Assembly (NCBI GenBank): GCA_048886185.1
Contig: JBHLKY010000001.1
Span: 60,001 to 92,000, forward strand
Reading direction: 5' to 3'
Length of the DNA: 32,000 nucleotides
Origin: Candidatus Hermodarchaeota archaeon
GTDB taxonomy: Archaea; Asgardarchaeota; Heimdallarchaeia; Hodarchaeales; Hodarchaeaceae
In this document: positions 3,245 through 31,998 of the stretch, in pieces
Layout of the letters: each line of letters starts with the position of its first letter
How positions within the stretch are numbered: position 1 is the stretch's first letter
Program-made: the position numbers and the translations under genes
Notes under the pieces: model-generated
The model's input: the letters and a program-made list of their open reading frames with translations, nothing else
Told to the model about the DNA's origin: nothing
The model's database searches: none

Positions 3245-3384
3245 TTATTAAATCGCATTGCTAATGTTGATATTCTAAATCGATTATTCTCAACAAATAC
3301 ATGAGGACTATTTAATCTTTTAACTAAAGAATTACGAAAAAAACTATACCAAATTTTAAATCTTAGCTCTTCATTCTTTTGCAT

Positions 3385-11820: not shown

Positions 11821-11862
11821 ACTTCTTCCTCAAAGCCAGTCAATATTCTTTTTGAAATAACT

Positions 11863-12846
11863 TTAGACAATTTGTCGTTTGATTTCTGAAGTTTCTTTAA
11901 TATGTTCTTGCTTCCAATAGGGATCACGGATGTAGATATATGCCCCATGAGCTGCGAGAGCTCCTTGAGCGGCTGCTAAAGTAGCTAGTTGATAGGGGGT
12001 AACAATATCTCCAGCTGCAAAAACTCCTTCAATATTTGTACGTTGAAGTTGATCCGTCTTTAGGAATTTTCCTTGAAATTCTAATCCTAAATCCTCAAAT
12101 ATCTCAGTATTTGGCTTTAACCCTACTGCAAGGATTACTTTCTCGACATTGAGTTCGATTTTTTCTCTAGTATTTATATCCTCTAAGATCGCCCCTTCTA
12201 CTTTACGTTGTCCAAGAATCTCTTTAATACTGACATTAGTCAGTATTTCGGCCATTTTTTCCTTTTTTACCAGATCTAAATTTTTTTCTGATGCTCTGAA
12301 GTCATTTCGACGGTGGGCCAAATAAATCTTCTGTGCAATGTTATTAAGATCTAAAACGGCATCGATGGCGGTATCACCACCTCCTACAACGAGTACACGA
12401 CGATTGTAAAAAATATCTGGTTCAATTACATAAGGATAAACCCCTCTGTCTTTGCTAGAAAGCTTTGCCTCCCCTGGAATTCCCAATTCATTAGGTTTCA
12501 TTCCTGTAGCTATAATAATAGATTTTGCTTGATAACTCGTTCCTTCAGAAGTTACAACATTAAGGTTCCTATGGATTTTTATAACTCGTTCTTTTATAAG
12601 ATGGACACCGTGATCTGCTGCTTGACGAACCCATTCTGAAACGAGATGTTCAGCACGAATGCGTGGTGTACCTGGGTAGTTGTAAATTTTCTTCTTGGGA
12701 TAAATAGTACTTAAAAGTCCTCCCCATGTGCCCCCCTCGAATACTGCTGTAACTAATCCTTTAAGCGAAGCAATAATTCCAGCAGAGAGTCCCGCTGGCC
12801 CACCTCCAATAACAATAACATCAAAGTTATTAGTTAATCCATTCAT
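11863..12846 (-). CDS. Thioredoxin-reductase-fold flavoprotein lacking CxxC, probably TrxR-type ferredoxin-NADP+ reductase
   Basis: GGGPAG, IYPKKKIYNYPG, IIIATG, GGGDTA, HRRNDFR (NADPH motif) and FAAGD. The CxxC position reads GVYPYVIEPD, and the protein contains no Cys. Confidence 0.8.
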   Translation of the reverse strand: MNGLTNNFDVIVIGGGPAGLSAGIIASLKGLVTAVFEGGTWGGLLSTIYPKKKIYNYPGTPRIRAEHLVSEWVRQAADHGVHLIKERVIKIHRNLNVVTSEGTSYQAKSIIIATGMKPNELGIPGEAKLSSKDRGVYPYVIEPDIFYNRRVLVVGGGDTAIDAVLDLNNIAQKIYLAHRRNDFRASEKNLDLVKKEKMAEILTNVSIKEILGQRKVEGAILEDINTREKIELNVEKVILAVGLKPNTEIFEDLGLEFQGKFLKTDQLQRTNIEGVFAAGDIVTPYQLATLAAAQGALAAHGAYIYIRDPYWKQEHIKETSEIKRQIV

Positions 12847-12883
12847 TTGATCACCATTTAATTTACCTATATATGTACTTTCT

Positions 12884-13981
12884 TCATTCTAGGTCTGATA
12901 ATGATAGTTTAATATCCATGGCATGTTCTGATAATCTTTCCTGAACATAAGTTCCCGATAATCTCCAGATATTACGAATTCTTCCATGTTTATCAATCAA
13001 GAAGGTTGTTCTTTCTGCCATTCCCGTTTCATTGTTTAAACAACCATAATTAGCTGAAATTTCTTTCTTTAGATCTGATATCAAGGGAAATGGAAGATGT
13101 AGACTATTTCTAAAAGATTGGAGATCTGAGACATCATCTACAGAAACTCCAATAACCTCTACATCAAGTTTCTTAAGTTCGTTATAGGCGTCTCGAAATC
13201 CTTCTGCTTCGATAATACATCCAGGAGTGTTTGCTTTAGGATAAAAGAATAGGGCAAGAGTTTTCTTGTTTTGAAAATCTGATAGTCTTATTGTTTCATT
13301 TTTATCTGTTTGAGCAATGAAGTTAGGAGCAAGATCACCAATTTCAAGGAAACCACTTTGCGTTTCAACTTTCTTGAGGGATTGTGTATCAGTTGCATAA
13401 ACTTCTTTAATTCTTTCCCAGAATGGTAGTTCTACATTTGTACTTAACATCATTGGTAGGCATAATGGGCAATCCTCCTCATGAGGCCTTCCAATAATAG
13501 GTGAAGCTACATGAAACCATGGATAAATGACATTTGAATGTAGTTCTTTTTCAAATGCTCGGACTTTTGGGTCGTTCAATCGTTCCCAAGGAGTTTCCTG
13601 ATATTTTTCATCTAACAACTGTGAAACACCTTTGAAAAGATTATTTATAACTTTCATTGCTTCAGTATCAACATCTCTCTCCCTGAATGCTGCACAAATA
13701 ATGTTTTCCGATCTTGTGTAATAAAATAACAGTTTTAAGGATCCAATACTCATACTTTGGACTTTTGTTTCTGATTCAGCAAACATCCCTGGCATTGTGG
13801 AGACAGCTGCTAAGAAAGCTGTTAGAAGTTCATCTTTTTTCCCTAACATCCCGCAGACATTTCCCCAACATCTCGAATAGATCGGTTGTCCTGAATCTTG
13901 ATAGATAATTAAGTATTCTAATTTAATTGTCCTGATCTGTTTCTTTCTTCTAAGAAAATTTACGATGGACCCAAGTTTCAT
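12884..13981 (-). CDS. Fusion: N-terminal longin-like domain, Cys/His-rich linker, C-terminal BCP/PrxQ peroxiredoxin
   Basis: Residues ~211-365 carry FFYPKANTPGC (PxxxTxxC), VIGVSVD, FPLISD and ERTTFLID. Residues ~20-155 show the longin beta-beta-alpha-beta-beta-beta-alpha-alpha pattern (EYLIIYQDSGQPIYSR, ELLTAFLAAVS, LKLLFYY, NIICAAF). The Prx call is strong; the longin call is by pattern only. Confidence 0.8.
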   Translation of the reverse strand: MKLGSIVNFLRRKKQIRTIKLEYLIIYQDSGQPIYSRCWGNVCGMLGKKDELLTAFLAAVSTMPGMFAESETKVQSMSIGSLKLLFYYTRSENIICAAFRERDVDTEAMKVINNLFKGVSQLLDEKYQETPWERLNDPKVRAFEKELHSNVIYPWFHVASPIIGRPHEEDCPLCLPMMLSTNVELPFWERIKEVYATDTQSLKKVETQSGFLEIGDLAPNFIAQTDKNETIRLSDFQNKKTLALFFYPKANTPGCIIEAEGFRDAYNELKKLDVEVIGVSVDDVSDLQSFRNSLHLPFPLISDLKKEISANYGCLNNETGMAERTTFLIDKHGRIRNIWRLSGTYVQERLSEHAMDIKLSLSDLE

Positions 13982-14611
13982 TTTTTCTTTACATCCTTTA
14001 AAATATGTTTATTAATATTATTAGAATCGTAATGAAGCGCTCGTTGGGGAAGTATCTTATGAACACGATTTTAAAATCATTGGCATACAAATTGGACAAT
14101 TTTCTTTATGATTATCTCCATTAAATGGTAAGGTGCGATAAAACCAAGGATGCATGACTTTCTTCAATAATTCCCTTTCAAATGAGATAACCATGGGATC
14201 ATTTAGTCGATCCCAAGGAGTTTTTTGAAAATCTTCGTCAATTAATTGTGTAATGTCTTGGAAAAGATCATTTATAACCCCCATTGTGTTTTTATTCACA
14301 TCTTCCTCTGGAAAGGCTAGGCATATGATATTTTCTGATTCTGTGTAACAGAATAACAATTTTAATGATCCAATACTTATATTCTGGACTTTTTCATTTT
14401 CAGATTCAGCAAACATCCTTGGCATAGTGGAGACAGCTGCTAAAAATGCTGTCATCAATTCATCTTTTTTTCCCAACATCCCACAAACATTCCCCCAACA
14501 CTTCGCATAGATTGGTTGTCCTGAATTTTGACAAATAATAACATATTCCAACTTAATTTGGTCAAGGTGTCTCTTTTTCTTAAAAACATCCATTAATGAA
14601 TTAATTTTCAT
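13445..14611 (-). repeat. Tandem gene duplication (13445-13981 vs 14057-14611)
   Basis: Similarity is visible at DNA level, e.g. gattcagcaaacatcc.tggcat.gtggagacagctgctaa and ttcatcttttttc occur in both copies. Confidence 0.9.
14057..14611 (-). CDS. Stand-alone longin-like protein, paralog of the N-terminal half of 12884..13981
   Basis: Hand alignment gives about 113 identities over ~180 aa to the fusion N-terminus, including the identical stretch CWGNVCGMLGKKDEL and H-x3-CPxCxPM. Confidence 0.8.
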   Translation of the reverse strand: MKINSLMDVFKKKRHLDQIKLEYVIICQNSGQPIYAKCWGNVCGMLGKKDELMTAFLAAVSTMPRMFAESENEKVQNISIGSLKLLFCYTESENIICLAFPEEDVNKNTMGVINDLFQDITQLIDEDFQKTPWDRLNDPMVISFERELLKKVMHPWFYRTLPFNGDNHKENCPICMPMILKSCS

Positions 14612-14866
14612 TTATTCATCTCTTCTATCAGAGTCCTTGAATAAAATTCTGTCCTATCTTTAATAATACATTAATTTGTTGAAATAAATCTTTTTCAATA
14701 TGAAATTCGTTATCATTCAGAAATTCATAACAAGCTAAATGATTAAGCTCATGAAGTTGCTTTAGCTATTTTAGACTAATAAAATATTGCTACAATTACA
14801 AGAGGCATACTGAAAAGGCATTTTTCGTCCCAATTTAATTTTAAGAAAAATATTAAGGTGAAAAAT

Positions 14867-15004
14867 TTGGCAATATGGGAATGTAGAATGTGTGGATACA
14901 CATACGATGACGAAGATCAAGGGGTTCCTTTTGAAGAGCTTCCTGATGATTGGATATGTCCTTGGTGTAAAGCTCCTAAGAAATACTTTGATAAGTATGA
15001 ATAA
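14867..15004 (+). CDS. rub: Rubredoxin, short 45 aa type
   Basis: Hand translation MAIWECRMCGYTYDDEDQGVPFEELPDDWICPWCKAPKKYFDKYE*, with CxxCG...FEELPDDWxCPxC. TTG start about 6 nt after AAGGTGA; in-frame GTG at 14858 is an alternative. Absent from the ORF track. Confidence 0.95.
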   Translation: MAIWECRMCGYTYDDEDQGVPFEELPDDWICPWCKAPKKYFDKYE

Positions 15005-15026
15005 AAGCTTTTTTCCTTTAGCTATT

Positions 15027-15590
15027 TCAGTTTTCATTATATTTATTATAATAAATGAACTCATGTAACAACTTGCGTTTAGGACGTTCTGCCTCATTTT
15101 TTCGTTGATGATCTTTAAAGAAGTCAGGAATTATGTTTGATTTTTTTCCAACAATAATAAGAGTAATTAAAAGCATTTCTTCAGGAATATCAAGTAGTTG
15201 TTTAACTTTTTCTGGGAAAAAACCTGCTATTGGATGAGCAACTAAACCTCTTTCAGTTAAGTATAAGATCATCAACGCTGTTGCCATTCCCGTATCAAAA
15301 AGAAAGTACTGACGGTTTTTTATTATACAGTCTAAGTCTGATTTAGAAAATACAGCAATAATTAGACTGGCAGCTTTTGCCCATGCGTTCCCATTAGTAA
15401 GTGTTTCGTCCTTTACACGAGTGAGTAATTCTTTCTCATAAATAAAAATAAACCTCCATGGCTGATTATTAGAACAAGATGGAGCTAATTGAGCTATTAG
15501 TGCAGTTTCTTCAATCAATTCTCTTGTAATCTCTACTGGTTCCAATGCCCTATAAGCTCTTCTCCTTTTAACTAAATTTTCAAAATTCAT
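15027..15590 (-). CDS. Nitroreductase family (FMN-dependent) protein
   Basis: RRRAYRA, APSCSNNQPWRF, FDTGMA, RGLVAHPIAGF and C-terminal RPKRK. GGTGA RBS upstream. Confidence 0.92.
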   Translation of the reverse strand: MNFENLVKRRRAYRALEPVEITRELIEETALIAQLAPSCSNNQPWRFIFIYEKELLTRVKDETLTNGNAWAKAASLIIAVFSKSDLDCIIKNRQYFLFDTGMATALMILYLTERGLVAHPIAGFFPEKVKQLLDIPEEMLLITLIIVGKKSNIIPDFFKDHQRKNEAERPKRKLLHEFIYYNKYNEN

Positions 15591-15782
15591 TACTTTTTCA
15601 CCATTTAAAACAGATTTCTGGTAAGTTTACAATTGTAAAAATGCTTTCAAGTATTTTTACTTAAACATTACCTCTGAAAATCGCAAAGAAGGTATTTAAG
15701 ATCTGAATAAGTTTGATAAAACATCATGAGTTAAGATAAAAAAAGGTATTTTCATTCTTTAAATCTAATAGAAGTGATAATT

Positions 15783-16286
15783 GTGGGAAAAACAGAAGAG
15801 AAACTAATGGCTGCATTTGCTGGGGAATCCCAAGCGAATAGAAAGTATCTTGCTTTTGCGAAAAAAGCGGAAAAAGAAGGTTTTAACCAAGTAGCTCGTG
15901 TATTTCGGGCTGCGGCGGCTGCAGAAACTGTACATGCACATGCACATTTACGTGTGTATGGAGGTATTAAATCTACTCTTGAAAATATTCAAGAAGCTAT
16001 TGGAGGAGAACACTATGAATTTGTTTCCATGTATCCAGAATTCATAGATATAGCTAAAGAAGAGGGTAGAAAAGCAGCAGAACGAAGTTTTGATCTAGCA
16101 AGACAGGTGGAAATCATCCATCATGAGCTTTATTCTAAAGCCTTAAAGGCGGTTGAAGAGGGAAAAGATCTGTCTGAAACATCATTGTTCGTCTGTAATG
16201 TCTGTGGTTACACCTGTGAAAATGAGATTCCAGATATTTGTCCTGTATGTGGAGCGTCTCACGAACGATTTACTGAGATTGAATAA
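15783..16286 (+). CDS. rbr: Rubrerythrin
   Basis: AFAGESQANRKYLAFA, AAAETVHA, GEHYE...MYP, EIIH and C-terminal rubredoxin-like CNVCGY...CPVCG. GTG start at 15783; the ORF track uses 15774. Confidence 0.95.
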   Translation: MGKTEEKLMAAFAGESQANRKYLAFAKKAEKEGFNQVARVFRAAAAAETVHAHAHLRVYGGIKSTLENIQEAIGGEHYEFVSMYPEFIDIAKEEGRKAAERSFDLARQVEIIHHELYSKALKAVEEGKDLSETSLFVCNVCGYTCENEIPDICPVCGASHERFTEIE

Positions 16287-16300
16287 TCTCTCTTGATATT

Positions 16301-16347
16301 CCAAGGATTAACCTCACTCCTTGGGGTATATCCCCTTTCTTTTTTTT
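16301..16347 (+). terminator. Putative terminator after rubrerythrin: two overlapping hairpins and a T-tract
   Basis: ccaagga (16301-07) / tccttgg (16318-24) inverted repeat, then gggg-tatat-cccc (16323-35), then tttctttttttt. Confidence 0.5.
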
Positions 16348-16443
16348 GTCTACTTTAGTCTCTAGAGACCCGCCAATGTTTTTTTTACGATTTTTTTTTG
16401 AAGAATTTTTTAAAATAACCATAAATATAGAACCTGAATAAGT

Positions 16444-17175
16444 ATGACCTCTGTTACTCTATATTTAAGCAATTTGAATGCACTTCAACCTTATATCGAT
16501 AGAAATGGACTTGTTGACTATAATCGCTTAAAAGATGATGAGTGGTTGAGAGATCAAATTAATTATATTAAATTAGTGAATATAGAGAATATGTCTCATG
16601 ATGAAGAGTTTGCTTTTTGGTTGAATGCCTACAACATACTTACCCTTAAAGGAGTGTGTATGGAATTAGACCTAGATCCACATTGGAAAGGAAATGTTTC
16701 GTATTGGAGTAAGGTGAGATTTTTTTTTCTAAGACGTTTTAATGTTGCTGGAAGAAAAATGAATTTGTGGTTTTTAGAAAATAAAATATTGCGAGGGCGT
16801 TTTAAAGATCCTAGAATTCATTTTGCGATTAACTGTGCTTCAAAATCGTGCCCTAATTTGCCAGAAAGACTTTTTGCCCCCAAGGACTTAGATAGATACT
16901 TAAATATGCTTTCTATTAATTTCATAAATGATAAAGATCATGTATTTCTTAATGAGGAAGAGAAAATCCTTTATCTTAATCCTATTTTTAAGTGGTATAA
17001 AAAAGACTTCAAAGCTCATGGTGGAGTGAAAAAATTCATATCAAAGTATTGGCAGCAGAGCGAAGAGTCAATCTTTGAAACATTTCAAATCAAATATTTA
17101 GAGTATGATTGGTCTATTAATTCTCAAGATTCTCATAAAAAACTACTGAAAATTGATGTTATAAGTAAAACATAA
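16444..17175 (+). CDS. DUF547 domain protein
   Basis: GLVDYNRL, AFWLNAYNILT, DPRIHFAINCASKSCPNL, IFKWYKKDF and YDWSIN. Confidence 0.88.
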   Translation: MTSVTLYLSNLNALQPYIDRNGLVDYNRLKDDEWLRDQINYIKLVNIENMSHDEEFAFWLNAYNILTLKGVCMELDLDPHWKGNVSYWSKVRFFFLRRFNVAGRKMNLWFLENKILRGRFKDPRIHFAINCASKSCPNLPERLFAPKDLDRYLNMLSINFINDKDHVFLNEEEKILYLNPIFKWYKKDFKAHGGVKKFISKYWQQSEESIFETFQIKYLEYDWSINSQDSHKKLLKIDVISKT

Positions 17176-17186
17176 AATAATAGGAA

Positions 17187-17903
17187 TCAAATTGATTCAA
17201 TCATTTCTTTTTCTTCAATTTCATTTAATAAAAGTTCTCCTAAGTGGTAAAGAAATGATCCAAGGAAGAAGAAGGACGTAAGAACTATAAGAATGGAGAT
17301 TAGGGAAAAAAAATATGATAATTGGTTCGATATTAAGGGAGGATTACCCATTTGGGAGAGACAAGCGCTTATTGCATAACCATCAGTGACAAATCCCAAA
17401 GAAGAGGGAAAGATTGGGAAGAGGTTAGGGAGATCAGCTAATACACCAAAGAAGAAATAAAACCTTCCAGTTTCATAAAAGATTCCTGATTTCATCCGAA
17501 GCAGTGTAATAATACAAAAAATGGTAAAAATCATAACTGAAGCGGATCCAGAAAGCATTGCAATAATAGATTGCCAACAATTGGGAAATTCATGAGAACA
17601 TACACAAGCACAACAGAATGTACCTTCAGAAAAATAGCATTCTAAGTTTGGACTTAAAGCAGGTAAAAAAAGACTTATTGAAAAGAGATGTCCTAGTTCA
17701 TGGACTAGAGTAAAAGGAAGGTAAAGAAAGCTAAATATAATTGCTAGAAGTGGAGATAGTAGGGTACATATTGGAAGTGTAAATGTGAATACAATTGAGA
17801 ATAATATTTTACCTTTTTTCATGCCTGAAGATATATCATATTTGTTTTTTTGAATCATATCCATTTGCTTCATATAATAATTCCCTAAAAAGCTTACGAA
17901 CAT
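17187..17903 (-). CDS. Membrane metalloprotease, site-2 protease (M50)-like
   Basis: Hydrophobic protein with HELGH (HExxH) in a TM segment and a downstream NLFP...TDG motif. The true start is probably downstream of 17903 (e.g. MKKGKILF). Confidence 0.7.
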   Translation of the reverse strand: MFVSFLGNYYMKQMDMIQKNKYDISSGMKKGKILFSIVFTFTLPICTLLSPLLAIIFSFLYLPFTLVHELGHLFSISLFLPALSPNLECYFSEGTFCCACVCSHEFPNCWQSIIAMLSGSASVMIFTIFCIITLLRMKSGIFYETGRFYFFFGVLADLPNLFPIFPSSLGFVTDGYAISACLSQMGNPPLISNQLSYFFSLISILIVLTSFFFLGSFLYHLGELLLNEIEEKEMIESI

Positions 17904-17973
17904 CAGAACATCAACCTAATTATTTAAAATTAACAATTGTTATTTAGAATTATTAATTATAGAGGGACAACAA

Positions 17974-18516
17974 TTGACTTCTAAATTAGAAAAATACAAG
18001 TTTGATCATGTTACTCTTGGTGTACTAAGAATAGCGATGGGTTTTGTTTTTCTATGGCCGTTCTTAGATAAAATGTTTGGTTTAGGGTTTGCTACCGCTC
18101 CTGAAAACTCGTGGCTTGCGGGTGCATCTCCTACACAAGGATTTTTGCAGTTTTATGGCGTGAATCAGAATAGTCCGTTTGCTTTTCTGTTTTCTGATGT
18201 TTTAGGTAATACCTATCAATTAGTGGACATTGCATACATGGGGATGCTATTATTTGCTGGTATTGGGTTAATATCAGGGGTTCTTGTAAGATTATCGAGT
18301 ATTTCCACAATAATCTTCTTGGCATCTGTTTATCTCTCTGAGTGGATCATTGCTCCTGCTGAAGGTACAATGGTATTCAATCCCTTAATCGATGAACACA
18401 TTATCTACATTCTTGTCCTATTATTATTCATTATAGTACCAGTTGGCAATTATCTCGGATTAGGCGAAAAATGGTCAAAGCTGTCTTTTGTAGAGAGAAT
18501 TCCCATTTTGAAGTAG
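17974..18516 (+). CDS. DoxX / TQO small-subunit (DoxD) family membrane protein
   Basis: LRIAMGFVFLWPFLDKMFG, WLAGASPTQGFL, GIGLISGVLVR, NPLIDEHIIY and LGLGEKW. TTG start after GAGGG. Confidence 0.85.
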   Translation: MTSKLEKYKFDHVTLGVLRIAMGFVFLWPFLDKMFGLGFATAPENSWLAGASPTQGFLQFYGVNQNSPFAFLFSDVLGNTYQLVDIAYMGMLLFAGIGLISGVLVRLSSISTIIFLASVYLSEWIIAPAEGTMVFNPLIDEHIIYILVLLLFIIVPVGNYLGLGEKWSKLSFVERIPILK

Positions 18517-18780
18517 GGATATACCCCTCTTCATCTCCTTATTTCTAATTTTTCTATTATCGCTTTTATAAGGATAAAAAATAAAATTGTAGCACTCCTC
18601 GGGGATGTGTTCGATCAATGTAACAATTTCTCTAACATCAACTTTTTATTAAATTACTTAAACAACATATCTTTTAATCCTATGATTTCTGAAAGGCTAG
18701 GGAGGAGATTACAAATTAGAGAAGTATTTATATCCTATCGGATTCAAACAAATGCACTCCTAAGAAATATCCGATGCTGA

Positions 18781-19641
18781 ATGAAAATGAATCTTCTTGT
18801 AATCTATAATCTAATTCTTTTAACCATGATCCGAATTATAGGTTTAGGTCTTTCTATTGAATTCTTCATAAATCTCCGAAAAAAAAGATTCATAGCTCCC
18901 ATCGCAGGTTGGGGATGTTGGGTAATAGCTGGAATATTACCAATAATTGCTGATATCCTACCTTCAGAGTTTGTAACTGAAGTTCTCCTTCTGATCAATG
19001 CAATTCTAGATGTGGAAGGACTAATACTAATTTTCTTAGGAATTTTATCCTACATTCGTTTTGTACCTGGAAAAATAATGTTTCTGGTATCGTTGGTACT
19101 TATGATCTTTCCAATAGTAACCCTTACATTATTTGGTAAAGTAATGGCATTGACATTCGCGGTTGTCCTGAATTTTGCTTCATATATTGTTATATCATTA
19201 ATAATAATTTTAAAGGGAAGAGAGGTTCATGAAATTATTGGAGATGGGGCTAAATGGTTATACTTCACATTATTTACTGTAATTTGCTACTTAATTTTGT
19301 TATGCATCCTTATCTTAACAGTTGATGATTATAGCTATGGTATATATTATTCTGTTAATACTACAGCAATAATTGGTAATTATACTATTAATATTCTGCT
19401 TACCATCCTTATTATTGTGTTATCAATTCATTTTGAAAGAGGTATCGCAAATACGGATAAAAATCAGCTAAAAGATAAATATTCACACAATATTGGAAAT
19501 ATACTCCAAATAATTGTGAGTGCAGCTTCCGTAATTGAGTTAGGGGGGCATTTGGATGATTCAGAGATTTTAAATTTGGTTTTAATCCAAGATAAATGTA
19601 ATGAAGCAGGGGAATTGATAAAAGAAATCAGAGAGCTCTAA
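18781..19641 (+). CDS. Seven-TM membrane protein with C-terminal HisKA/DHp-like helical hairpin and no ATPase domain
   Basis: Seven hydrophobic segments by eye, followed by KDKYSHNIGNILQII (H-box-like). The ORF ends about 50 aa later. Confidence 0.6.
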   Translation: MKMNLLVIYNLILLTMIRIIGLGLSIEFFINLRKKRFIAPIAGWGCWVIAGILPIIADILPSEFVTEVLLLINAILDVEGLILIFLGILSYIRFVPGKIMFLVSLVLMIFPIVTLTLFGKVMALTFAVVLNFASYIVISLIIILKGREVHEIIGDGAKWLYFTLFTVICYLILLCILILTVDDYSYGIYYSVNTTAIIGNYTINILLTILIIVLSIHFERGIANTDKNQLKDKYSHNIGNILQIIVSAASVIELGGHLDDSEILNLVLIQDKCNEAGELIKEIREL

Positions 19642-20120
19642 TAATTCGATCTCTCACAACGAGTACTTATATCAAATATTGAAAGATACTGGCTGATAAT
19701 GGATTAGAAAATAACTCTCAAATAACTATTGTTTAATTATGAACTGCGTAGAATAATTATTATAAACAGGTAATAACTATACTAGACCAGCACAATCCGA
19801 GATAATTGTCCGTCATCTAAAACAGAGAAACTTCTGAATATAGATTGAGTTCTTTAACAGTAATAACACTTATGAGTACTCATACTATAGATGAAAATCA
19901 TTTTTAAGAAGTTGATGGAGTAGAATTATTCAGCAGCTATTACTACAAAGAATGGAGAATTTACGATAGTTAACAGTTGATTATAATCTGAATCATTAAT
20001 TTTCAAGTTGTATCTATAACGTATACATGTAAAAAACAAAGTTAAAATCATAATCACTAAATTGGAGCATAACTAATTATAATGTGATTAGCCGTTTAAA
20101 CTTCTCAAAGAGGAAAGAAA

Positions 20121-20405
20121 ATGTTAAGAAGCACACGGAAACCTATACTGCCACCTCCCCGTGCTGAACATGAGTATGTAGTGTCAATACTCTCTGAACA
20201 GTGTGATGGATGTGAATTATGTGTAGAATTTTGTCCGACTCATGTGTTAGAAATCGATATGGAGGCATATAACTCACGCATGCTTCATCCTGCAACGGCT
20301 GCTAAACCAGATGAATGCGTAGGGTGTCAACAGTGTGAGAGGATTTGCCCTTCTGTCTCAATCTTTATCACAGAGATTCAAGTCCCACAGGAGGGTCAGC
20401 TATGA
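20121..20405 (+). CDS. korD: 2x[4Fe-4S] ferredoxin, OFOR delta subunit
   Basis: CDGCELCVEFCP and CVGCQQCERICP; overlaps the alpha start by 4 nt. Confidence 0.9.
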   Translation: MLRSTRKPILPPPRAEHEYVVSILSEQCDGCELCVEFCPTHVLEIDMEAYNSRMLHPATAAKPDECVGCQQCERICPSVSIFITEIQVPQEGQL

Positions 20406-21550
20406 GTAGTACCAAAACAATTTTAACCACTGGAAATTATGCGAGTGCCGAGGGAGCAATTGCAGTTGGTTGCCGATACTTTGGAGGTTATCCAATTACT
20501 CCATCCTCAGAAATTGCCCACTACATGTCGAGGCGTCTACCTCAGGTTGGTGGTACTTTTATTCAGATGGAAGATGAGCTAGCCTCAATAGTATCAGTTG
20601 TTGGCGCATCTTATGCTGGTGTTAAAGCAATGACTGCAACTTCTGGGCCAGGTTTGTCTTTAATGGCAGAAACAATTGGTTTGGGATTCATGTTAGAAGC
20701 GCCTATGGTAATTATCACGGTAATGAGAGGAGGGCCAAGTACTGGACAGCCTACTAAGGCATCACAATCTGATGTTATGCAAACACGTTACCTATCGCAC
20801 GGGGATTACGAGATGATCGTTCTTGCTCCTGCTACTGTCCAAGAATGCTATGATTTTTCTATATATGGGTTTAATTTGGCAGAAAAATATAGAACTCCTG
20901 TTATTATAGCATCAGATGGGATTGTTGGTCAAATGATGGAACCAGTTAAATATCATTCAGATTTTGAGATAATAAACCGAAAACCTCCCCAAGTTCCCCC
21001 TAACGAGTATAAACCTTTTGAAGTACTCGATGACGATTTAATTCCAGGCATGGCAATAGCTGGATCCGAATATAACTTCTATGTTACAGGTTTAACTCAT
21101 GATGACACTGGTAGTCCAGATATGACTCCAGAAAGAGCAATAAAGCTTATCACACGTCTTTGTGATAAAATTAGGAAGGCTAGGTTTGCGATTAATGATT
21201 ATGTTCCATGGCAAGAGCAATATTTAGATGATGCAGATATCATTATATTATCTTACGGTATTAATTCCAGAGGTGTTCCTGAAGCGGTTGAAAGAGCACG
21301 TAAGCATGGTCATAAAGTGGGATTCGTTAGATTACGAACCCTATGGCCGTTTCCAGAGCATATGATGGAGAAAGTAGGTCAAAATGACGTAAAAAAAGTT
21401 ATTGTGAGTGAAATGAATTATGGCCAAATAATAAGGGAAGTTGAACGATTTAGACACCTTGGATTTGAAGTTACTGGGAGCCTCGTCCCAACTACCATTC
21501 CTTTCAGTCCAAGGTTCATTTATGATGAGTTAATGAAGGAGATTAAATAA
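20402..21550 (+). CDS. korA: 2-oxoacid:ferredoxin oxidoreductase alpha subunit (short form, no gamma domain)
   Basis: GNYASAEGA, GYPITPSSEI, QMEDELAS, TATSGPG and MRGGPSTGQPT. ATG at 20402 (MSSTKTIL) is preferred over the track start 20345. Substrate not determinable. Confidence 0.9.
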   Translation: MSSTKTILTTGNYASAEGAIAVGCRYFGGYPITPSSEIAHYMSRRLPQVGGTFIQMEDELASIVSVVGASYAGVKAMTATSGPGLSLMAETIGLGFMLEAPMVIITVMRGGPSTGQPTKASQSDVMQTRYLSHGDYEMIVLAPATVQECYDFSIYGFNLAEKYRTPVIIASDGIVGQMMEPVKYHSDFEIINRKPPQVPPNEYKPFEVLDDDLIPGMAIAGSEYNFYVTGLTHDDTGSPDMTPERAIKLITRLCDKIRKARFAINDYVPWQEQYLDDADIIILSYGINSRGVPEAVERARKHGHKVGFVRLRTLWPFPEHMMEKVGQNDVKKVIVSEMNYGQIIREVERFRHLGFEVTGSLVPTTIPFSPRFIYDELMKEIK

Positions 21551-22416
21551 TGACAACAATAGATTCCATTCCAACTTCTAAAAGTTCTGAAGAGATTACT
21601 AAATTACATCCTTTACATGAAAGGCTAAACTTACATCGTTTTATTTTTTGTCCAGGGTGCTTGATAGGATCAGCTATAACATCAATTACAACCTGTTTAA
21701 AAGAAAGAGGTCTTACATCTAAAGATTATGCAGTGGTATCTGGCATTGGATGCACTGGTCGATCCAGTGGATGTTTCAATTCACCTGCTTTTCATACTAC
21801 TCATGGACGGGCAATCCCCTTTGCTACAGGTTTGAAACTAGCCAATCCTAACCTTGAAGTTGTTGTACTTTCAGGAGATGGAGATCTCTTTGCTATCGGC
21901 GGGAATCACTTCATTCATGCTTGTAGGAGAAATGTTGAGATTACTGTTATTTGTATTAATAATAATGTGTATGGCATGACAGGAGGCCAATGTGCTCCAA
22001 CAACTCAAATAGGTGATTTTACAACGACTACACCTTACGGAAACATTGAACCTCCTTTCAATTTGGTCTCTCTAGCTGCTGCATCAGGTGCCACTTATGT
22101 TGCTAGATGGCCTGGATATGATACTCTTCGTTTGAATAAAAGCATCCTAAAAGCTTTTGATAACCCAGGGTTTAGTTTCATAGAGGTTTTAGCACCTTGT
22201 TTCACCCAGTATGGTCGCAAAAATAAGCTAGGTGATGCTGTGCAGATGTTAGACTGGATCAAGAATCAAGTAAGGATTAAAACTGGGTGTCCCCCCCATG
22301 AAGCTATCTTTGACTTCAAAAAAGGTATTATAATATGTGGGGAGTTTGTTGATACTCATCGGGAGGGTTTTAGTAAGAAAATACAAGACCTTAGAGACTT
22401 GGCGCAAAAGAAATGA
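21550..22416 (+). CDS. korB: 2-oxoacid:ferredoxin oxidoreductase beta subunit
   Basis: FCPGC, SGIGCTGR, TTHGRAIPFATG, GDGDLFAIGGNHFIH, YGMTGGQCAPTT and EVLAPC. Start overlaps the alpha stop. Confidence 0.92.
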   Translation: MTTIDSIPTSKSSEEITKLHPLHERLNLHRFIFCPGCLIGSAITSITTCLKERGLTSKDYAVVSGIGCTGRSSGCFNSPAFHTTHGRAIPFATGLKLANPNLEVVVLSGDGDLFAIGGNHFIHACRRNVEITVICINNNVYGMTGGQCAPTTQIGDFTTTTPYGNIEPPFNLVSLAAASGATYVARWPGYDTLRLNKSILKAFDNPGFSFIEVLAPCFTQYGRKNKLGDAVQMLDWIKNQVRIKTGCPPHEAIFDFKKGIIICGEFVDTHREGFSKKIQDLRDLAQKK

Positions 22417-22434
22417 TGATAATAAGTGATAACT

Positions 22435-24825
22435 ATGACAGAAAGTGCAGAACAACCAACATCTGAAGCTAAAATTGGTGTTTTTCTCTGTAAATGTGGA
22501 AAAAATATTGGTGGAACAGTTGATATCGATGAGATAGCTAAAGAGGTCGAGGGGTTACCTGGAGTAAAATTGGTTCAGGTAAACACTTACACTTGTTCAG
22601 ATCCAGGACAGGTCGAGATAGAGGAAGCTATAAAGGAACAGGGGATAGAAAAGGTAGTCGTATCAGCTTGTTCGCCAAGGTTACACCTTCCGACATGGAA
22701 AAATCTGATGAAGCGTGTTGGAATGAACCCAGAAGTGGTGGAGGTTGCTAATATCCGTGAACATTGTTCTTGGGTTCATCTCCATGAAAAAGAAGAAGCT
22801 ACATTGAAAGCGAAAGAGCTAACAGAAATGGCAATAGCCAAGGCCGAATTACTGGAAGCTGTTGATGAAATCGTCGTCCCTGTTGAAAAGAGAATTCTAA
22901 TCATCGGTGGTGGGGTAGCAGGGATACAGGCTGCTTTAGATTTGGCTGATGATTATCAAGTCATTATGGTTGAAAAAAGTCCAACTATTGGTGGGAAGAT
23001 GGCTTTAATTGATAAAACTTTCCCCACCATGGACTGTTCAATTTGTATTTTAGGCCCAAAAATGGCTGATGTAGGAAACCATAAAAATATCAACTTGATT
23101 GCTAGTGCAGAGGTAACGAATATTGAGGGGTACGTAGGAAACTTTGAAGTTACCATAAAAAAGGAACCAAGATATGTAGATGAAGATCTGTGTACTGCTT
23201 GCAATGATTGCATTGATATTTGTCCTGTTAATGTTATCGATGAGTATTCAGGAAACTTGGGGTGGAGAAAGGCGATTTACATTCCTTATCCACAATCTGT
23301 TCCCGCTGCTTATCTGATAGATACTGAGAATTGCCTTGGACTCTCTCCTTTAGCGTGTGGAAAGTGTACTACTACCTGTGACAAAGAAGCTATCAATTAT
23401 GAGGACACAGAAAAGACCTATAATTTTAAGGTTGGTTCCATTATTGTTGCAACTGGTTTTCAAATTTTTGATGCCTCCAAAATTCCCGAGTATGGGTGGG
23501 GGAACTACCCCAACGTTGTGACTACTTTTGAATTTGAACGCTTGATCAATGCAGCTGGCCCTACCTCAGGAGAACTAGTCCGCCCAAGCGATCTCAAACC
23601 ACCGAAGAGTGTAGCTTTTGTTAATTGTGTTGGATCGAGAGACGTTCGATTTAATCCCTATTGCAGTAATTTTTGTTGTATGGAAGTTATAAAGGATAGT
23701 CTCTTGATTAAAGAACACTGGCCTGAGGTGGACATTTCTGTCTTCTATATGGATATTAGAGCTTTTGGAAAAGGATTTGAAGAACTCTACACTCGCTCTA
23801 GAGAAGAAGGAGTTCATTACATACGTGGTCGTCCGAGTATGATTCAAGAGGATCCTGGTACCAATAATCTTTTCGTTTCTGTTGAGGATACTCGTTCAGG
23901 AAAGCTTTTATCTAATGAATTTGATCTAGTTGTTCTATCTGTAGGTGCAGAGGGTTCACCCTATCCAATTCCATTTCCTGTTTCTAGAGATCCCAAAGGA
24001 TTCTATATCGAAGCTCATCCTAAACTAAAACCCGTTGATACACCCACTGATGGCGTTTTCATTGCTGGAGGGGCTGAAGCTCCAAAAGATATTCGTGAAT
24101 GTGTTACGCAAGCAAGTGCTGCAGCAGGAAGAGTTACGAGGTTACTCGCTAAGGGAGAGTTCTCTGTTGAGCCCTTGTACGCCTATGTCGATACTGAATT
24201 ATGCAATTCTTGTGGTAATTGTGCAAAACGTTGTCCTTATAATGCTATAACTGTGGATACAAAGAAGAAGACTCCTGCTCATGTCAATCCCATTTTATGC
24301 AAAGGTTGCGGAACATGTGCAGCAGATTGTCCAAAGGACTGCATTACAATGACTAACTTTACAGACGCTATGATCTTACGTCAAGTAGATATTGCTCTCA
24401 GGGATAACGCCTCTGAAAAAGTTTTAATCTTCGCTTGTAACTGGTGTTCTTATGGAGGCGCAGATCTGGCTGGAACCAGCCGAATTCAGTACCCAACTAA
24501 TTCACGAATCGTCCGAACGATGTGCTCTGGTCGAGTAGATATTGATTTTGTCAAAAGAGCGTTTGATCGTGGTGCTGGAGCTGTAATGTTAACAGGATGC
24601 CATCCCCAAGATTGTCATTACATTTCTGGTAATGATTGGGCCTTGAAGCGTGAGAATAGAATCCGTCGCTGGATGAAGAAGCAAGATATTGCTGATGAGC
24701 GATTTATCATTGAATGGATGTCAGCTGCTGAGGGGAAGAAATTTGCTAATACTGTGACCGAAATGAGTAAAATTGCCAGGAAAAATCATAAGGTTATCCA
24801 TGAAAAAGCAAAAGCTGCGGCTTGA
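22435..24825 (+). CDS. hdrA: Heterodisulfide reductase subunit A fused to MvhD ([2Fe-2S]) domain
   Basis: GVFLCKCGKNI, SACSPRLH, NIREHCSW, GGGVAG, DKTFPTMDCSICIL, CVGSRD...YCSNFCCM, YMDIRAFGKGFEE and four ferredoxin motifs, then MvhD motifs FACNWCSYGGAD, MCSGRVD and GCHPQDCHY. ATG 22435 (GTG 22426 alternative). Confidence 0.95.
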   Translation: MTESAEQPTSEAKIGVFLCKCGKNIGGTVDIDEIAKEVEGLPGVKLVQVNTYTCSDPGQVEIEEAIKEQGIEKVVVSACSPRLHLPTWKNLMKRVGMNPEVVEVANIREHCSWVHLHEKEEATLKAKELTEMAIAKAELLEAVDEIVVPVEKRILIIGGGVAGIQAALDLADDYQVIMVEKSPTIGGKMALIDKTFPTMDCSICILGPKMADVGNHKNINLIASAEVTNIEGYVGNFEVTIKKEPRYVDEDLCTACNDCIDICPVNVIDEYSGNLGWRKAIYIPYPQSVPAAYLIDTENCLGLSPLACGKCTTTCDKEAINYEDTEKTYNFKVGSIIVATGFQIFDASKIPEYGWGNYPNVVTTFEFERLINAAGPTSGELVRPSDLKPPKSVAFVNCVGSRDVRFNPYCSNFCCMEVIKDSLLIKEHWPEVDISVFYMDIRAFGKGFEELYTRSREEGVHYIRGRPSMIQEDPGTNNLFVSVEDTRSGKLLSNEFDLVVLSVGAEGSPYPIPFPVSRDPKGFYIEAHPKLKPVDTPTDGVFIAGGAEAPKDIRECVTQASAAAGRVTRLLAKGEFSVEPLYAYVDTELCNSCGNCAKRCPYNAITVDTKKKTPAHVNPILCKGCGTCAADCPKDCITMTNFTDAMILRQVDIALRDNASEKVLIFACNWCSYGGADLAGTSRIQYPTNSRIVRTMCSGRVDIDFVKRAFDRGAGAVMLTGCHPQDCHYISGNDWALKRENRIRRWMKKQDIADERFIIEWMSAAEGKKFANTVTEMSKIARKNHKVIHEKAKAAA

Positions 24826-24977: not shown

Positions 24978-25445
24978 TTATTCGCCAAAATCGAAATAAC
25001 TTTCTTCCACCAGCTCCCATAAATCCTTTTCAGATAAAGTTAATTTCTCTATAATCATTTTTTGAATGGTTGTTAAGAGTTTATGATGCTTTTTCTCATC
25101 GTTAAGGATCGCCCTTATGATAAGTTTTTCATTTTCGTTTTCTGTTGTGTTCAGCTTATCTTGATAGACTTCTATCGCTTGGCGTTCCAGTTCTATATGT
25201 TCAGCTATTGATTTTTTCAGTTCTTCTCCAAATTTTTCTGCTACAGAGGGAGTTGGTTTAGTATAGATACTAATCAATGCACTCAGCATACCTGCATGCT
25301 TTTTTGAGTCTAATGCAATCCCCAATATCAATTCTCGAATGAGAACATTATCTATCCCTTGAACTGCTTTTTCAGCTTTTTCAACTATTGTTTTCTCTAG
25401 AGTAATTTGATCGTTGTAGAATTCGATTCTTTCCTCTTTCCTCAT
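24978..25445 (-). CDS. Ferritin-like four-helix (di-iron) superfamily protein
   Basis: Internal two-fold repeat with LE..IALDSKKH and HIELE..ILNDEKKH; all-helical, 155 aa. Confidence 0.75.
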   Translation of the reverse strand: MRKEERIEFYNDQITLEKTIVEKAEKAVQGIDNVLIRELILGIALDSKKHAGMLSALISIYTKPTPSVAEKFGEELKKSIAEHIELERQAIEVYQDKLNTTENENEKLIIRAILNDEKKHHKLLTTIQKMIIEKLTLSEKDLWELVEESYFDFGE

Positions 25446-28888: not shown

Positions 28889-30808
28889 ATGGTATCGATA
28901 ACAAAGAAAATATTAGAAGATCATATAGTGGAAGGTAAATTCGTAATAGGTGAGGAAATTGGGATTCGCATTGATCATACACTGACTCAAGATGCCACTG
29001 GAACTATGGCATACCTCCAATTCGAGGCTATGGGGCTTGATAAGGTCAAGACTGAGCTTTCTGTGTCTATCGTTGATCATAACACTTTACAAACTGATTT
29101 TAAGAACCCTGATGATCATCGGTACCTACAATCTGTAGCAGCAAAATATGGTATTATGTTTTCTAGGCCAGGTAATGGTATTTGTCACCAAGTCTTTCTT
29201 GAGCGTTTTGCAAGGCCAGGTAAGACATTAATCGGATCGGATTCTCATACACCGACTGCTGGCGGTATGGGGTCGATTGCGATTGGTGCTGGGGGTCTTG
29301 ATGTTGCTGTAGCAATGGGAGGAGGTTTATTTTACCTTAAGACACCAAAGATTGTAGGAGTTAAACTTACAGGGTCATTACAAGACTATGTTACAGCCAA
29401 AGATGTAATTCTTGAAGTTCTCAGAAGGATATCCGTAAAAGGCGGTGTTGGCAAAATTCTAGAATATTATGGTCCAGGAGTAAAAACTTTGTCAGTACCC
29501 GAACGCGCTACAATAACAAACATGGGAGCTGAAACTGGGGCTACAACTTCGATCTTCCCCTCTGATGAAGTTACACGAGATTTTCTTAAATGGCAGAAAA
29601 GAGAAGACCAATGGGTGGAACTTCCTGAAGGAATAGATGATGATTATGATGAAATTATTGAGATTAACCTTTCAGAGCTGGAACCGCTAGTTGCGAAACC
29701 CCATTCTCCTGGTGATGTTGTTCCTCTTTCCGAAGTTGTCGGAATGAAAGTCGATCAAGTAGCAATAGGATCCTGTACTAATAGTTCCTTAAAAGACATG
29801 TTAACCGCTGCAGCTCTCCTTAAAGGACGGAAAATTCATCCTAACACAGTTCTGGGAATTTCTCCTGGATCACGTCAAGTACTAATGGAATTGGCGAAAA
29901 ACGGCAGCCTAGCTGATATGATTAAGGCAGGTGCCAGAATATTAGAAACTGCTTGTGGTCCATGTATTGGAATGGGTTTTGCTCCAAAGACAAATGGAAC
30001 AGTAGCTCGAACTTTTAATAGGAACTTTTATGGAAGAAGTGGAACGAAGAGTGCTAACGCTTATTTGGTAAGTCCAGAAGTTGCTGTTGCTGCTGCTGTC
30101 TTTGGAGAATTCACCGATCCTCGTAAATTAGGAGACTATCCCAAAATAGAGATGCCACCAGCAATTGAAATCGATGACTCAATGATTCTTCAACCGTCTG
30201 ACAAACCTGAAGAAGTAGAGATCATTCGAGGCCCCAACATTGCCCCATTACCAGAATTTTATGCGATGCCTGATGATTTCCAGATTAAAGTGCTCATTAA
30301 AACTGAGGATAACATCACAACGGATCATATCATGCCTGCAGGAGCGAAAATACTACCTTTAAGGTCTAATCTTCCAGAGATTAGCAAGTATGTGTTTGAA
30401 CAGGTAGATCCAACCTTTCCAGAGAGAGCTCTTGAAAGTAAAAAGGAAGGTGGCGGAATCATCATTGGTGGGGACAATTACGGTCAAGGATCTAGTAGAG
30501 AACATGCAGCACTCGCTCCAATGTATTTAGGAATAAAGGCTGTTCTTACAAAATCCTTTGCACGAATTCATCGTGACAATTTAATAAACTTTGGAATTCT
30601 CCCTCTGTCGTTTGCAAACACTGCCGATTATGACAAAATCAAAGAGAATGATATCCTAGAGATTAAAGGAGTACGTAAAGCCTTAGAAAGTAATGAATCA
30701 GTTGTCATCCATAATATTACTCAAGGATTTGACATCAAAACCTCATATGATCTATCTGAACGTGATCGGAAAATCCTCCTTGCTGGGGGCACGTTAAGCT
30801 ACATTTAA
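28889..30808 (+). CDS. Aconitate hydratase, short single-chain (Aquifex-type) family
   Basis: QDATGTMA, GNGICHQ, GSDSHT, IGSCTNSS, ACGPCIGMG, TFNRNF, TDHIMPAG and GSSREHAA; 639 aa. Confidence 0.9.
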   Translation: MVSITKKILEDHIVEGKFVIGEEIGIRIDHTLTQDATGTMAYLQFEAMGLDKVKTELSVSIVDHNTLQTDFKNPDDHRYLQSVAAKYGIMFSRPGNGICHQVFLERFARPGKTLIGSDSHTPTAGGMGSIAIGAGGLDVAVAMGGGLFYLKTPKIVGVKLTGSLQDYVTAKDVILEVLRRISVKGGVGKILEYYGPGVKTLSVPERATITNMGAETGATTSIFPSDEVTRDFLKWQKREDQWVELPEGIDDDYDEIIEINLSELEPLVAKPHSPGDVVPLSEVVGMKVDQVAIGSCTNSSLKDMLTAAALLKGRKIHPNTVLGISPGSRQVLMELAKNGSLADMIKAGARILETACGPCIGMGFAPKTNGTVARTFNRNFYGRSGTKSANAYLVSPEVAVAAAVFGEFTDPRKLGDYPKIEMPPAIEIDDSMILQPSDKPEEVEIIRGPNIAPLPEFYAMPDDFQIKVLIKTEDNITTDHIMPAGAKILPLRSNLPEISKYVFEQVDPTFPERALESKKEGGGIIIGGDNYGQGSSREHAALAPMYLGIKAVLTKSFARIHRDNLINFGILPLSFANTADYDKIKENDILEIKGVRKALESNESVVIHNITQGFDIKTSYDLSERDRKILLAGGTLSYI

Positions 30809-30927: not shown

Positions 30928-31998
30928 TCACTGATAACTTTGCCATTTCTGGTCTAGGTTAGGGTCTTGGAGTGTTTCATTGATGTAATCAGCGAACTCA
31001 TTGCCAGTACATCCAGTGTCCCGTCCAGTGCAAGTGATTCGCTTTTCATACTGAGAACAGATGTCTAGAGCTTTGTCTAGTTTGGATGCTTTCTCGACAA
31101 ATCCAATATGATTCAATAGCATAGCAGTGGCTTTAATGATGCTAGTTGGATCAGCATATTGAACACGGCCTTCCTCTACCATTCGAAGACCAGAACCATG
31201 TACCGCTTCAAACATGGCATATCTCTTACCAATATTAGCTGCACCTGCAGTTCCAAGACCTCCTTGAATCTGAGCTGCTTCATCCGTAATAATATCACCA
31301 TAAAGATTTGGAGCAGTAATCACTCGGAAGGAGCTTTGCCGAGCGGGATCGATGAGCTTCGCAGTCATGATGTCAATGTACCAATCATCCCATTTTACAT
31401 CGGGGTAGTCTTTCGCTACTTGTTCTGCGATCGCGAGGAATTTTCCGTCTGTTTTCTTTACGACATTGGCTTTAGTGACTACCGTGACTTTGTTGATGTT
31501 GTTCTTCTTTGCATATTCAAATGCTGCTCTGATAATTCGATCTGAGCCTTGATTTGTGATAACTTTGAAATCAATGGCCAAATCATCGGAAATATCGACG
31601 CCTTTTGATCCAAGAACGTATGCTCCTTCAGTATTTTCTCGATAAAACATCCAATCGATATTTTTTTCAGGTACACGAACAGGACGCACGTTGGCAAAAA
31701 GATCCAACTCACGACGCATTGCCACATTAGCGGATTCAATGTTAGGCCATGGAGAACCCTTCCAGGGAGTGGTTGTTGGTCCCTTCAGGATGGCATGACA
31801 TTTCTTCAGTTCTTCCAACACATCATCAGGAATAGGTTTCATTACTTTAACTCTATTTTCAATGGTCAAACCATCTATCATTCGAACTTCTACTTTTCCT
31901 GACTTAATTTCCTCTTCTAACAGGAAATTTAGAATTTTTACTGCATGCTGGGTAATTTCAGGTCCAATTCCATCTCCTCCACATGCGCCAATGATGAT
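30928..31998 (-). CDS. Isocitrate/isopropylmalate dehydrogenase family protein (5'-truncated by window edge), probably isocitrate dehydrogenase
   Basis: The frame stays open beyond the track start to the window edge: IIIGACGGDGIGPEIT... Motifs GPTTTP, LDLFANVRPV, RENTEG, KANV, NLYGDI and FEAVHGS. Specificity inferred only from the adjacent aconitase. Confidence 0.85.
   Translation of the reverse strand: MIIGACGGDGIGPEITQHAVKILNFLLEEEIKSGKVEVRMIDGLTIENRVKVMKPIPDDVLEELKKCHAILKGPTTTPWKGSPWPNIESANVAMRRELDLFANVRPVRVPEKNIDWMFYRENTEGAYVLGSKGVDISDDLAIDFKVITNQGSDRIIRAAFEYAKKNNINKVTVVTKANVVKKTDGKFLAIAEQVAKDYPDVKWDDWYIDIMTAKLIDPARQSSFRVITAPNLYGDIITDEAAQIQGGLGTAGAANIGKRYAMFEAVHGSGLRMVEEGRVQYADPTSIIKATAMLLNHIGFVEKASKLDKALDICSQYEKRITCTGRDTGCTGNEFADYINETLQDPNLDQKWQSYQ

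Follow-up and report, generated by a model that had tools for sequence, protein, structure and literature searches.

The operon examined here occupies positions 20121–24825 of a 32,000-nucleotide stretch of DNA (the window) from a Candidatus Hermodarchaeota archaeon (assembly GCA_048886185.1, contig JBHLKY010000001.1, positions 60,001 to 92,000). It contains the genes for the delta, alpha, and beta subunits of a 2-oxoacid:ferredoxin oxidoreductase (OFOR), followed by a gene for an HdrA-MvhD fusion protein, all co-directional and tightly packed. We consider it probable, though well short of certain, that these genes encode a four-subunit OFOR of the Kor/Oor type whose gamma subunit is supplied in trans, and that this enzyme is coupled electrically to an HdrA2-type module as one unit, working more likely in the oxidative direction. 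The parts of the operon are the following:

19642–20120, no strand: spacer 5′ of the delta gene; 479 nt, AT-rich, probable promoter region.
20121–20405, plus strand: OFOR delta subunit; 94 aa, ferredoxin-like with 2×[4Fe-4S], OorD/KorD type, Pfam Fer4 families.
20402–21550, plus strand: OFOR alpha subunit; 382 aa, PF01855 (POR_N) and PF17147 (PFOR_II), without PF01558.
21550–22416, plus strand: OFOR beta subunit; 288 aa, PF02775 (TPP_enzyme_C), thiamine-diphosphate and [4Fe-4S] binding.
22435–24414, plus strand: HdrA part of the HdrA-MvhD fusion; flavin adenine dinucleotide (FAD) and [4Fe-4S] domains; alternative GTG start at 22426.
24415–24825, plus strand: C-terminal MvhD domain of the fusion with HdrA; [2Fe-2S] type, PF02662 FlpD (E = 2e-44).

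An earlier note on this DNA, made from the sequence alone, had described overlaps of 4 nt between delta and alpha and of 1 nt between alpha and beta, an hdrA start 9–18 nt after the beta stop, and an alpha subunit lacking a gamma domain. Reading of the junctions and a Pfam search of alpha agreed with it on every point. The delta stop and alpha start share the sequence ATGA, the alpha stop TAA and the beta ATG have one base in common, and after the beta stop (22416) hdrA can start at GTG 22426 (9 nt) or at ATG 22435 (18 nt). We take the ATG to be the conserved start, because at least 90% of 31 orthologues retain the N-terminal residues MTES. The fusion protein is then 796 aa long (799 aa from the GTG); its FlpD/MvhD domain covers residues 666–782 of the 799-aa reading. 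Downstream of hdrA lie a rubrerythrin-like gene (24978–25445, minus strand), which converges on hdrA in relatives too, and then lacZ.

Judged from their sequences, the OFOR and the HdrA-MvhD protein both look intact, with the YPITP and GDG..NN motifs and all cysteine ligands present. In delta, cysteines 28, 31, 34, 38, 66, 69, 72, and 76 are invariant in the 31 orthologues and fit two [4Fe-4S] clusters. The YPITP motif of alpha is at residues 30–34; the GDG...NN motif of beta starts at residue 109, and alignment of beta to PDB 8YS5_C places cysteines 34, 37, 68, and 217 in a CxxC...C...C pattern. Every cluster-binding cysteine and the FAD motif of HdrA are also invariant, as are cysteines 668, 671, 697, 722, and 727 of the MvhD domain.

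Alpha, beta, delta, and the gamma subunit of relatives (gammaH, described below) each matched the corresponding chain of 8YS5, the structure of a four-subunit 2-oxoglutarate:acceptor oxidoreductase. The best PDB match of beta was 8YS5_C (218 bits), and those of alpha were 1YD7, 8YS5_A, and 6N2N; delta matched 8YS5_D, its top PDB matches being the polyferredoxins FwdF/FmdF. Among the OFOR subunits a curated NCBIfam cut-off was passed by alpha only, with the generic model NF006412 (479 bits against a cut-off of 411); the best model for delta (OorD) and the top model for beta (2-oxoglutarate-type beta) scored below their cut-offs. The enzyme is most likely a Kor/Oor-type four-subunit 2-oxoacid:ferredoxin oxidoreductase, presumably acting on 2-oxoglutarate; the hints to its reaction are the likeness to Oor/Kor models and the TCA, succinyl-CoA, and methylmalonyl-CoA genes nearby. 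HdrA residues 11–659 aligned end to end with Methanothermococcus HdrA (5ODC_A, 738 bits), and residues 661–778 of the fusion matched the MvhD chains of 9SW2, 8RVU, 5ODC, and 7BKB. The fusion also matched the NCBIfam HdrA2 model NF040770 end to end with 1075.6 bits; because this is a near miss of the cut-off of 1100, we call the protein HdrA2-type and not an HdrA2 equivalog.

The link between the OFOR and hdrA was followed in a phylum survey of 201 sampled Asgard genomes, in which matches to alpha fell into two tiers. Tier 1 (alpha at least 71% identical) consisted of this genome, 5 of the 9 genomes of its genus, and 9 of the 40 genomes of a family in another class; tier 2 (alpha 49–56% identical) is a sister orthogroup. 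The order delta-alpha-beta-hdrA, whose conservation the earlier note had proposed to check, was kept in all 13 tier 1 relatives with downstream sequence. In a search started from HdrA, with orthologues defined as at least 73% identical, beta lay directly before hdrA in every one of the 47 public loci that had an HdrA orthologue and upstream sequence. The conserved loci span two Asgard classes, represented by Hodarchaeota/Heimdall and Loki-type lineages. Across the 36 fully readable loci the gap between beta and hdrA was mostly 1–32 nt, and recurrence of so tight an operon in 36 loci is far beyond chance. The operon is strongly purified, alpha being approximately 70–91% and HdrA 77–94% identical across the two classes. 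The genome is that of a Hodarchaeales-like Asgard archaeon. The best matches of alpha were 81–91% identical and came from metagenome-assembled genomes (MAGs) labelled Heimdallarchaeota/Hodarchaeota; Loki-type (‘Promethearchaeia’) matches were 70–75% identical. In trees, the beta and HdrA proteins of the operon each formed a single clade, with support of 99 and 100. Asgard-type gammaH-delta-alpha-beta-hdrA operons with HdrA 73–77% identical were also seen on three bacterial-named MAG contigs (L112, L116, and L121; Nanopelagicaceae, Desulfobacterales, and Rhodobacteraceae), which are probably mis-binned; a Loki-type genome has a gammaH 100% identical to the one on L112.

Tier 2, found in genomes without tier 1, reads delta-alpha-beta-gamma, so that gamma sits where tier 1 has hdrA. 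These loci are often Hdr-linked as well: L167 and L168 read delta-alpha-beta-gamma-hdrA-mvhD-mvhG-mvhA, L172 has a variant of this order, and L171 has hdrA upstream. The bacterial sister clade of the operon's HdrA-MvhD also adjoins OFOR genes, in five phyla (Planctomycetota, Acidobacteriota, Fibrobacterota, Eisenbacteria, and Chloroflexota), and one Planctomycetota locus (L155) reads delta-alpha-beta-gamma-hdrA. The HdrA-MvhD gene of that locus (L155:6001–8328) has one in-frame stop, which a selenocysteine site or an error could explain.

The earlier note had placed HdrA-MvhD where gamma is expected, and had offered supply of gamma in trans as one possibility. A takeover of gamma's place by HdrA finds no support: tier 1 has a gamma orthogroup of its own, gammaH (188–196 aa, PF01558). 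The best structural relatives of gammaH are OorC and the gamma chain of 8YS5, and its top NCBIfam model is OorC, with a score below cut-off. Supply in trans is what relatives show. Within the 201-genome sample, gammaH was present in 14 of the 15 operon-bearing genomes and in 1 of the 186 others, and because of this co-occurrence we regard it as the cognate gamma of the enzyme. The only operon-bearing genome of the sample without gammaH was this MAG; all eight close relatives checked, two closed genomes included, have it. The gene immediately precedes delta on the same strand in 28 Loki-type loci; in 4 Hodarchaeota loci it is divergent, just upstream of the operon. In the subclade closest to the window it is remote from the operon: the distance is 70 kb in CP070760.1 and 2.3 Mb in CP070695.1, both closed genomes, and in three MAGs gene and operon are on separate contigs. 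From these positions, the best reading is that the gammaH gene left the operon in this lineage and is supplied in trans. A local rearrangement, with a cognate gamma elsewhere and hdrA unlinked in relatives, had been raised in the note as the outcome that would speak against a special OFOR-HdrA arrangement. The cognate gamma does lie elsewhere in relatives, but hdrA is not unlinked in them, because the loci reading delta-alpha-beta-gamma belong to the sister orthogroup (alpha 49–56% identical) and several of them continue into hdrA-mvhD-mvhG-mvhA.

In the genus-mate G102 (L076, C7:136000–149825, the same locus as L021), gammaH heads a divergent gammaH-hdrCB-hdrA-mvhD-mvhG-mvhA array. An SDR gene and the delta-alpha-beta-hdrA operon adjoin this array back to back, and the whole putative system thus lies in one 12-kb locus.

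The window itself has no free-standing gamma gene, as the earlier note had said; the statement does not extend to gamma domains, one of which (PF01558) is fused to the alpha subunit of a second OFOR (6644–8527). The 479-nt spacer upstream of delta yielded no gamma remnant by tblastn or with a hidden Markov model (HMM) of 17 gammaH orthologues. Two open reading frames 5′ of the operon (17974–18516, 180 aa; 18781–19641, 286 aa) were considered as a hidden gamma gene and rejected, being hydrophobic, membrane-like, without a Pfam match, and unlike gammaH. The 286-aa frame has a counterpart upstream of delta in locus L019 too. A check for orphan gamma genes, also proposed in the note, found five other gamma domains in this genome, and these too were rejected, since each sits with the genes of its own enzyme. 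They are distributed as follows:

Contig C9: IorA-thioesterase-IorB.
Contigs C6 and C16: gamma-delta-alpha(-beta) operons.
Contig C34 and the window: fused KorA.

The C9 locus (L001, C9:102018–105557) is a split indolepyruvate-type oxidoreductase, in which the IorA C-terminus is followed by a 4HBT thioesterase, IorB, and then a CitF-like gene.

In the mechanism that we propose, a 2-oxoacid and coenzyme A (CoA) would be converted to acyl-CoA and CO2, and the electrons would pass via beta and delta to HdrA-MvhD. Electrons would move directly between delta, a built-in ferredoxin, and the iron-sulfur chain of HdrA-MvhD, bypassing free ferredoxin, and the OFOR and HdrA-MvhD would act as a single electron-transfer unit. 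From HdrA-MvhD the electrons would go to an HdrBC-type disulfide reductase, an MvhAG hydrogenase, or both, encoded elsewhere. In Methanosarcina acetivorans HdrA2B2C2, which contains the one HdrA2 characterised so far, electrons from reduced ferredoxin pass via HdrA2 to HdrB2C2 (PMC5296606). The context in these archaea, which degrade peptides and glutamate, favors oxidation because of the genes near the operon and the physiology of relatives: the neighbors in Loki-type loci include an ADP-forming acyl-CoA synthetase (20 of 24 loci), a DUF35 protein (18 of 24), and methylmalonyl-CoA mutase (7 of 24); fumarase, aconitase, and a second Kor are encoded in the window; and cultured relatives have been described as peptide degraders that use 2-oxoacid oxidation and Mvh-Hdr (bioRxiv 10.1101/2025.02.26.640444, 10.1101/726976). 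A more specific form of the proposal, in which delta binds to the fused MvhD domain where MvhG does so in methanogens, to give an Asgard-specific supercomplex that works free of ferredoxin, is tentative, and we judge it rather unlikely as stated.

What supports the earlier note's suggestion that 2-oxoacid oxidation may be wired directly into HdrA is the gene link, which is very strongly conserved across lineages; a physical complex of OFOR and HdrA is putative. A complex of the 796-aa HdrA-MvhD with the 94-aa delta was predicted with a score of 0.66, against 0.68 for an unrelated control, and the prediction speaks neither for nor against binding. Bacterial HdrA rows were excluded from the alignment used for this prediction, because L155 carries the in-frame stop. 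Several observations weigh against the coupled, oxidative unit. Among the conserved genes of the operon there is no hdrBC, no hydrogenase, and no other acceptor. Feeding a bifurcating flavin from a donor at approximately −500 mV makes little sense thermodynamically, unless all that the module does is relay or confurcate. In the beta tree the OFOR of the operon falls among Asgard delta-alpha-beta-gamma enzymes, whereas in the HdrA tree its HdrA groups with bacterial HdrA, and therefore the two parts have different histories. In the closed genome CP070760.1, HdrA matches residues 1–584 only and is missing its last ~215 residues, which comprise the C-terminal ferredoxin domain and MvhD (L119:5992–7911, equivalent to L022:12043–13782); the full HdrA-MvhD module may therefore not be essential. 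A ribosomal protein gene follows within ~100 nt of this short hdrA, which may be truncated naturally or be in decay. Finally, gammaH was not found in this 96%-complete assembly by tblastn, by a genome search, or by a six-frame search with the HMM of 17 orthologues, and it is not certain that the gammaH-bearing metagenome contig described below belongs to this organism.

The main rival to the oxidative reading is reductive use of the same genes, which we think unlikely. HdrA-MvhD, supplied by a mid-potential donor such as H2 or formate, would send a low-potential electron directly to the OFOR, which would act as a 2-oxoacid synthase (acyl-CoA + CO2 to 2-oxoacid), while an HdrBC partner took the high-potential electron. 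This would parallel Hdr-Fmd in methanogens, for which supercomplex structures have been solved (PDB 7BKB, 9SW6), and the best PDB matches of delta are the FwdF/FmdF polyferredoxins. It would also agree with the proposal that Hdr-Flx electrons feed KorABCD in the reductive tricarboxylic acid (TCA) cycle of a tubeworm symbiont (PMC11636981). The back-to-back arrangement in G102 and the mvhG and mvhA genes after hdrA in sister-orthogroup loci point the same way. Reductive use fits poorly, however, with the catabolic neighbors in Loki-type loci (ADP-forming acyl-CoA synthetase, thioesterase, and methylmalonyl-CoA mutase) and with cultured relatives that rely on 2-oxoacid oxidation to degrade peptides, and neither hdrBC nor a donor module is conserved in the operon.

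Less probable again is that no complex forms. The OFOR and HdrA2-type genes would be co-transcribed because both products deal with electrons at the level of ferredoxin, but these would be linked through free ferredoxin only, HdrA2 working with an HdrBC encoded elsewhere, as in Methanosarcina. The use of soluble ferredoxin by M. acetivorans HdrA2B2C2 (PMC5296606), the existence of Bathyarchaeial HdrA-MvhD relatives with no OFOR nearby, and the differing phylogenetic affinities of OFOR and HdrA are all consistent with it. However, the adjacency is exceptionless across ~60 loci and recurs in several bacterial phyla amid different genes, which is more than co-regulation usually preserves.

The missing gammaH bears on both the coupled unit and the last alternative. 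The assembly is 4.84 Mb in 75 contigs, with the window on contig C1, and the best match of the gammaH HMM in it is IorB, at 32 bits. In CP070695.1, gammaH lies beside an Lrp regulator and a UbiA gene, and none of the three has an orthologue in this assembly. Contig C1 ends ~4 kb from the spot corresponding to the CP070695.1 gammaH, in a region that is rearranged relative to CP070760.1 and CP070695.1. The gene appears to assemble poorly, because in one relative it is on a 2.2-kb contig. Four sediment metagenome runs contain this window at 99–100% of its words, and in these runs an unbinned contig of 4.5–12.5 kb covers the CP070695.1 gammaH and Lrp genes at ~83% identity; close relatives differ to a comparable degree (76–87%). 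The depths of the unbinned contig in two runs, 13 and 19.8, were similar to those of a contig of this assembly, 11.1 and 17.9. The 30-nt loose ends of the gammaH-bearing contig match neither this assembly nor any locus compared, and its assignment is uncertain because related Asgard populations share the samples. We read the absence of gammaH here as probably a loss in binning, not biology, with the gene itself probably unbinned. A truly gamma-less three-subunit OFOR, in which HdrA-MvhD or a paralogous gamma covers CoA binding and stability, would account for an intact operon in an assembly where three methods did not find gammaH, where its CP070695.1 neighbors are missing as well, and where five other gamma domains could in principle substitute, but it is very improbable given the retention of gammaH in 14 of 14 other operon-bearing sampled genomes and in all eight close relatives, its poor assembly, the unbinned contig in the source metagenomes, and the end of contig C1 so near the equivalent spot.

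A literature search found no description of korDAB-hdrA in Asgard archaea; OFOR genes beside hdrA are already known from a reductive TCA cluster of a tubeworm symbiont (PMC11636981). Particular to the present operon are the minimal delta-alpha-beta set with a fused HdrA-MvhD, the displaced gamma, and the strong conservation in two Asgard classes. Compared with OorDABC/KorDABG (PDB 8YS5/8YS6; OorC 3G2E), the same chains are matched and the order starts delta-alpha-beta as in oorDABC, but the fourth gene is HdrA-MvhD and not gamma, which is upstream, on the opposite strand, or far away. The HdrA2 of M. acetivorans (Yan, Wang and Ferry 2017, PMC5296606) likewise has a C-terminally fused MvhD, and its electrons come from reduced ferredoxin, the form in which an OFOR delivers them; here an OFOR and no hdrB2C2 stands alongside, in a host without methanogenesis. 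The Hdr-Flx/KorABCD/TfrAB cluster of ‘Ca. Endoriftia persephone’ (PMC11636981) has a four-subunit Kor beside hdrA and thus shares the OFOR-hdrA adjacency, and a hand-over of electrons between Hdr and the oxoglutarate enzyme, direct or mediated by ferredoxin, has been proposed for it. That cluster, which is read as NADH-driven and reductive, also has hdrBC, flxABCD, thiol:fumarate reductase, and gamma in cis, whereas this operon's cluster, set beside it and the Asgard superclusters, has no hdrBC, Flx/MvhAG donor module, or fumarate reductase. The Asgard delta-alpha-beta-gamma-hdrA-mvhD-mvhG-mvhA clusters (L167, L168, L172) belong to the same family and start in the same order, with hdrA and mvhD after the OFOR; they have gamma between beta and hdrA, separate HdrA and MvhD, and hydrogenase genes following, whereas the present operon has a single HdrA-MvhD protein, with the hydrogenase and gamma genes at other sites. 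In the methanogen Hdr-Fmd supercomplexes (7BKB, 9SW6), whose HdrA is 55–60% similar over its full length, electrons go directly to a CO2-handling enzyme via a ferredoxin-like subunit, with no free ferredoxin involved. The partner there is formylmethanofuran dehydrogenase, in a complex that has been shown; here it would be the OFOR.

The note was correct that the window has no hdrB, mvhA, or mvhG: no CCG (HdrB) domain and no mvhA or mvhG match was found in it. Nor was hdrB or hdrC conserved beside the operon in 34 loci. The note's proposal to look for hdrBC elsewhere in the genome turned up 19 CCG matches and an hdrCB-hdrA-mvhD-mvhG-mvhA operon on contig C25 (37832–43946). The region C25:2000–44000 is packed with Hdr genes, including three HdrA-HdrA(-MvhD) arrays and several HdrCB-like genes, and an MvhD and double-HdrA set lies just upstream of the window at C1:55094–58604.

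The TCA-cycle genes of the window are fumarase C (1835–3244) and aconitase A (3379–6078), followed by a CBS protein. The second OFOR is a two-subunit Kor, with alpha carrying the fused gamma domain PF01558 (6644–8527) and beta at 8532–9548. An oxidative-stress island (10465–17175) holds genes for a CoA-disulfide/NADH-oxidase-like flavoprotein, thioredoxin reductase, a long AhpC-type peroxiredoxin, nitroreductase, rubrerythrin, and DUF547. Relative to CP070760.1 (L022), ~7 kb (12884–19641) are apparently inserted between the thioredoxin reductase gene and delta. Downstream of the operon are a second aconitase-family gene (28889–30808) and an isocitrate/isopropylmalate dehydrogenase gene (30928–31881).

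For annotation, the lesson is that a ‘three-subunit’ OFOR may have a displaced gamma gene, and that a MAG may miss gamma through binning. Asgard archaea oxidise amino-acid-derived 2-oxoacids and pass the electrons to partners as H2 or formate, and the route by which electrons at the level of ferredoxin enter their Hdr/Mvh machinery has so far been assumed. The operon offers a compact, clonable test case for direct OFOR-HdrA coupling, an idea that also arises for carbon fixation in tubeworm symbionts and for many uncultured bacteria. If the supercomplex were real, an enzyme that cleaves C–C bonds would be a new type of electron-input/output module for the HdrA flavin, and a 2-oxoglutarate:disulfide/H+ oxidoreductase would set the disposal of low-potential electrons in syntrophic relatives of eukaryotes.

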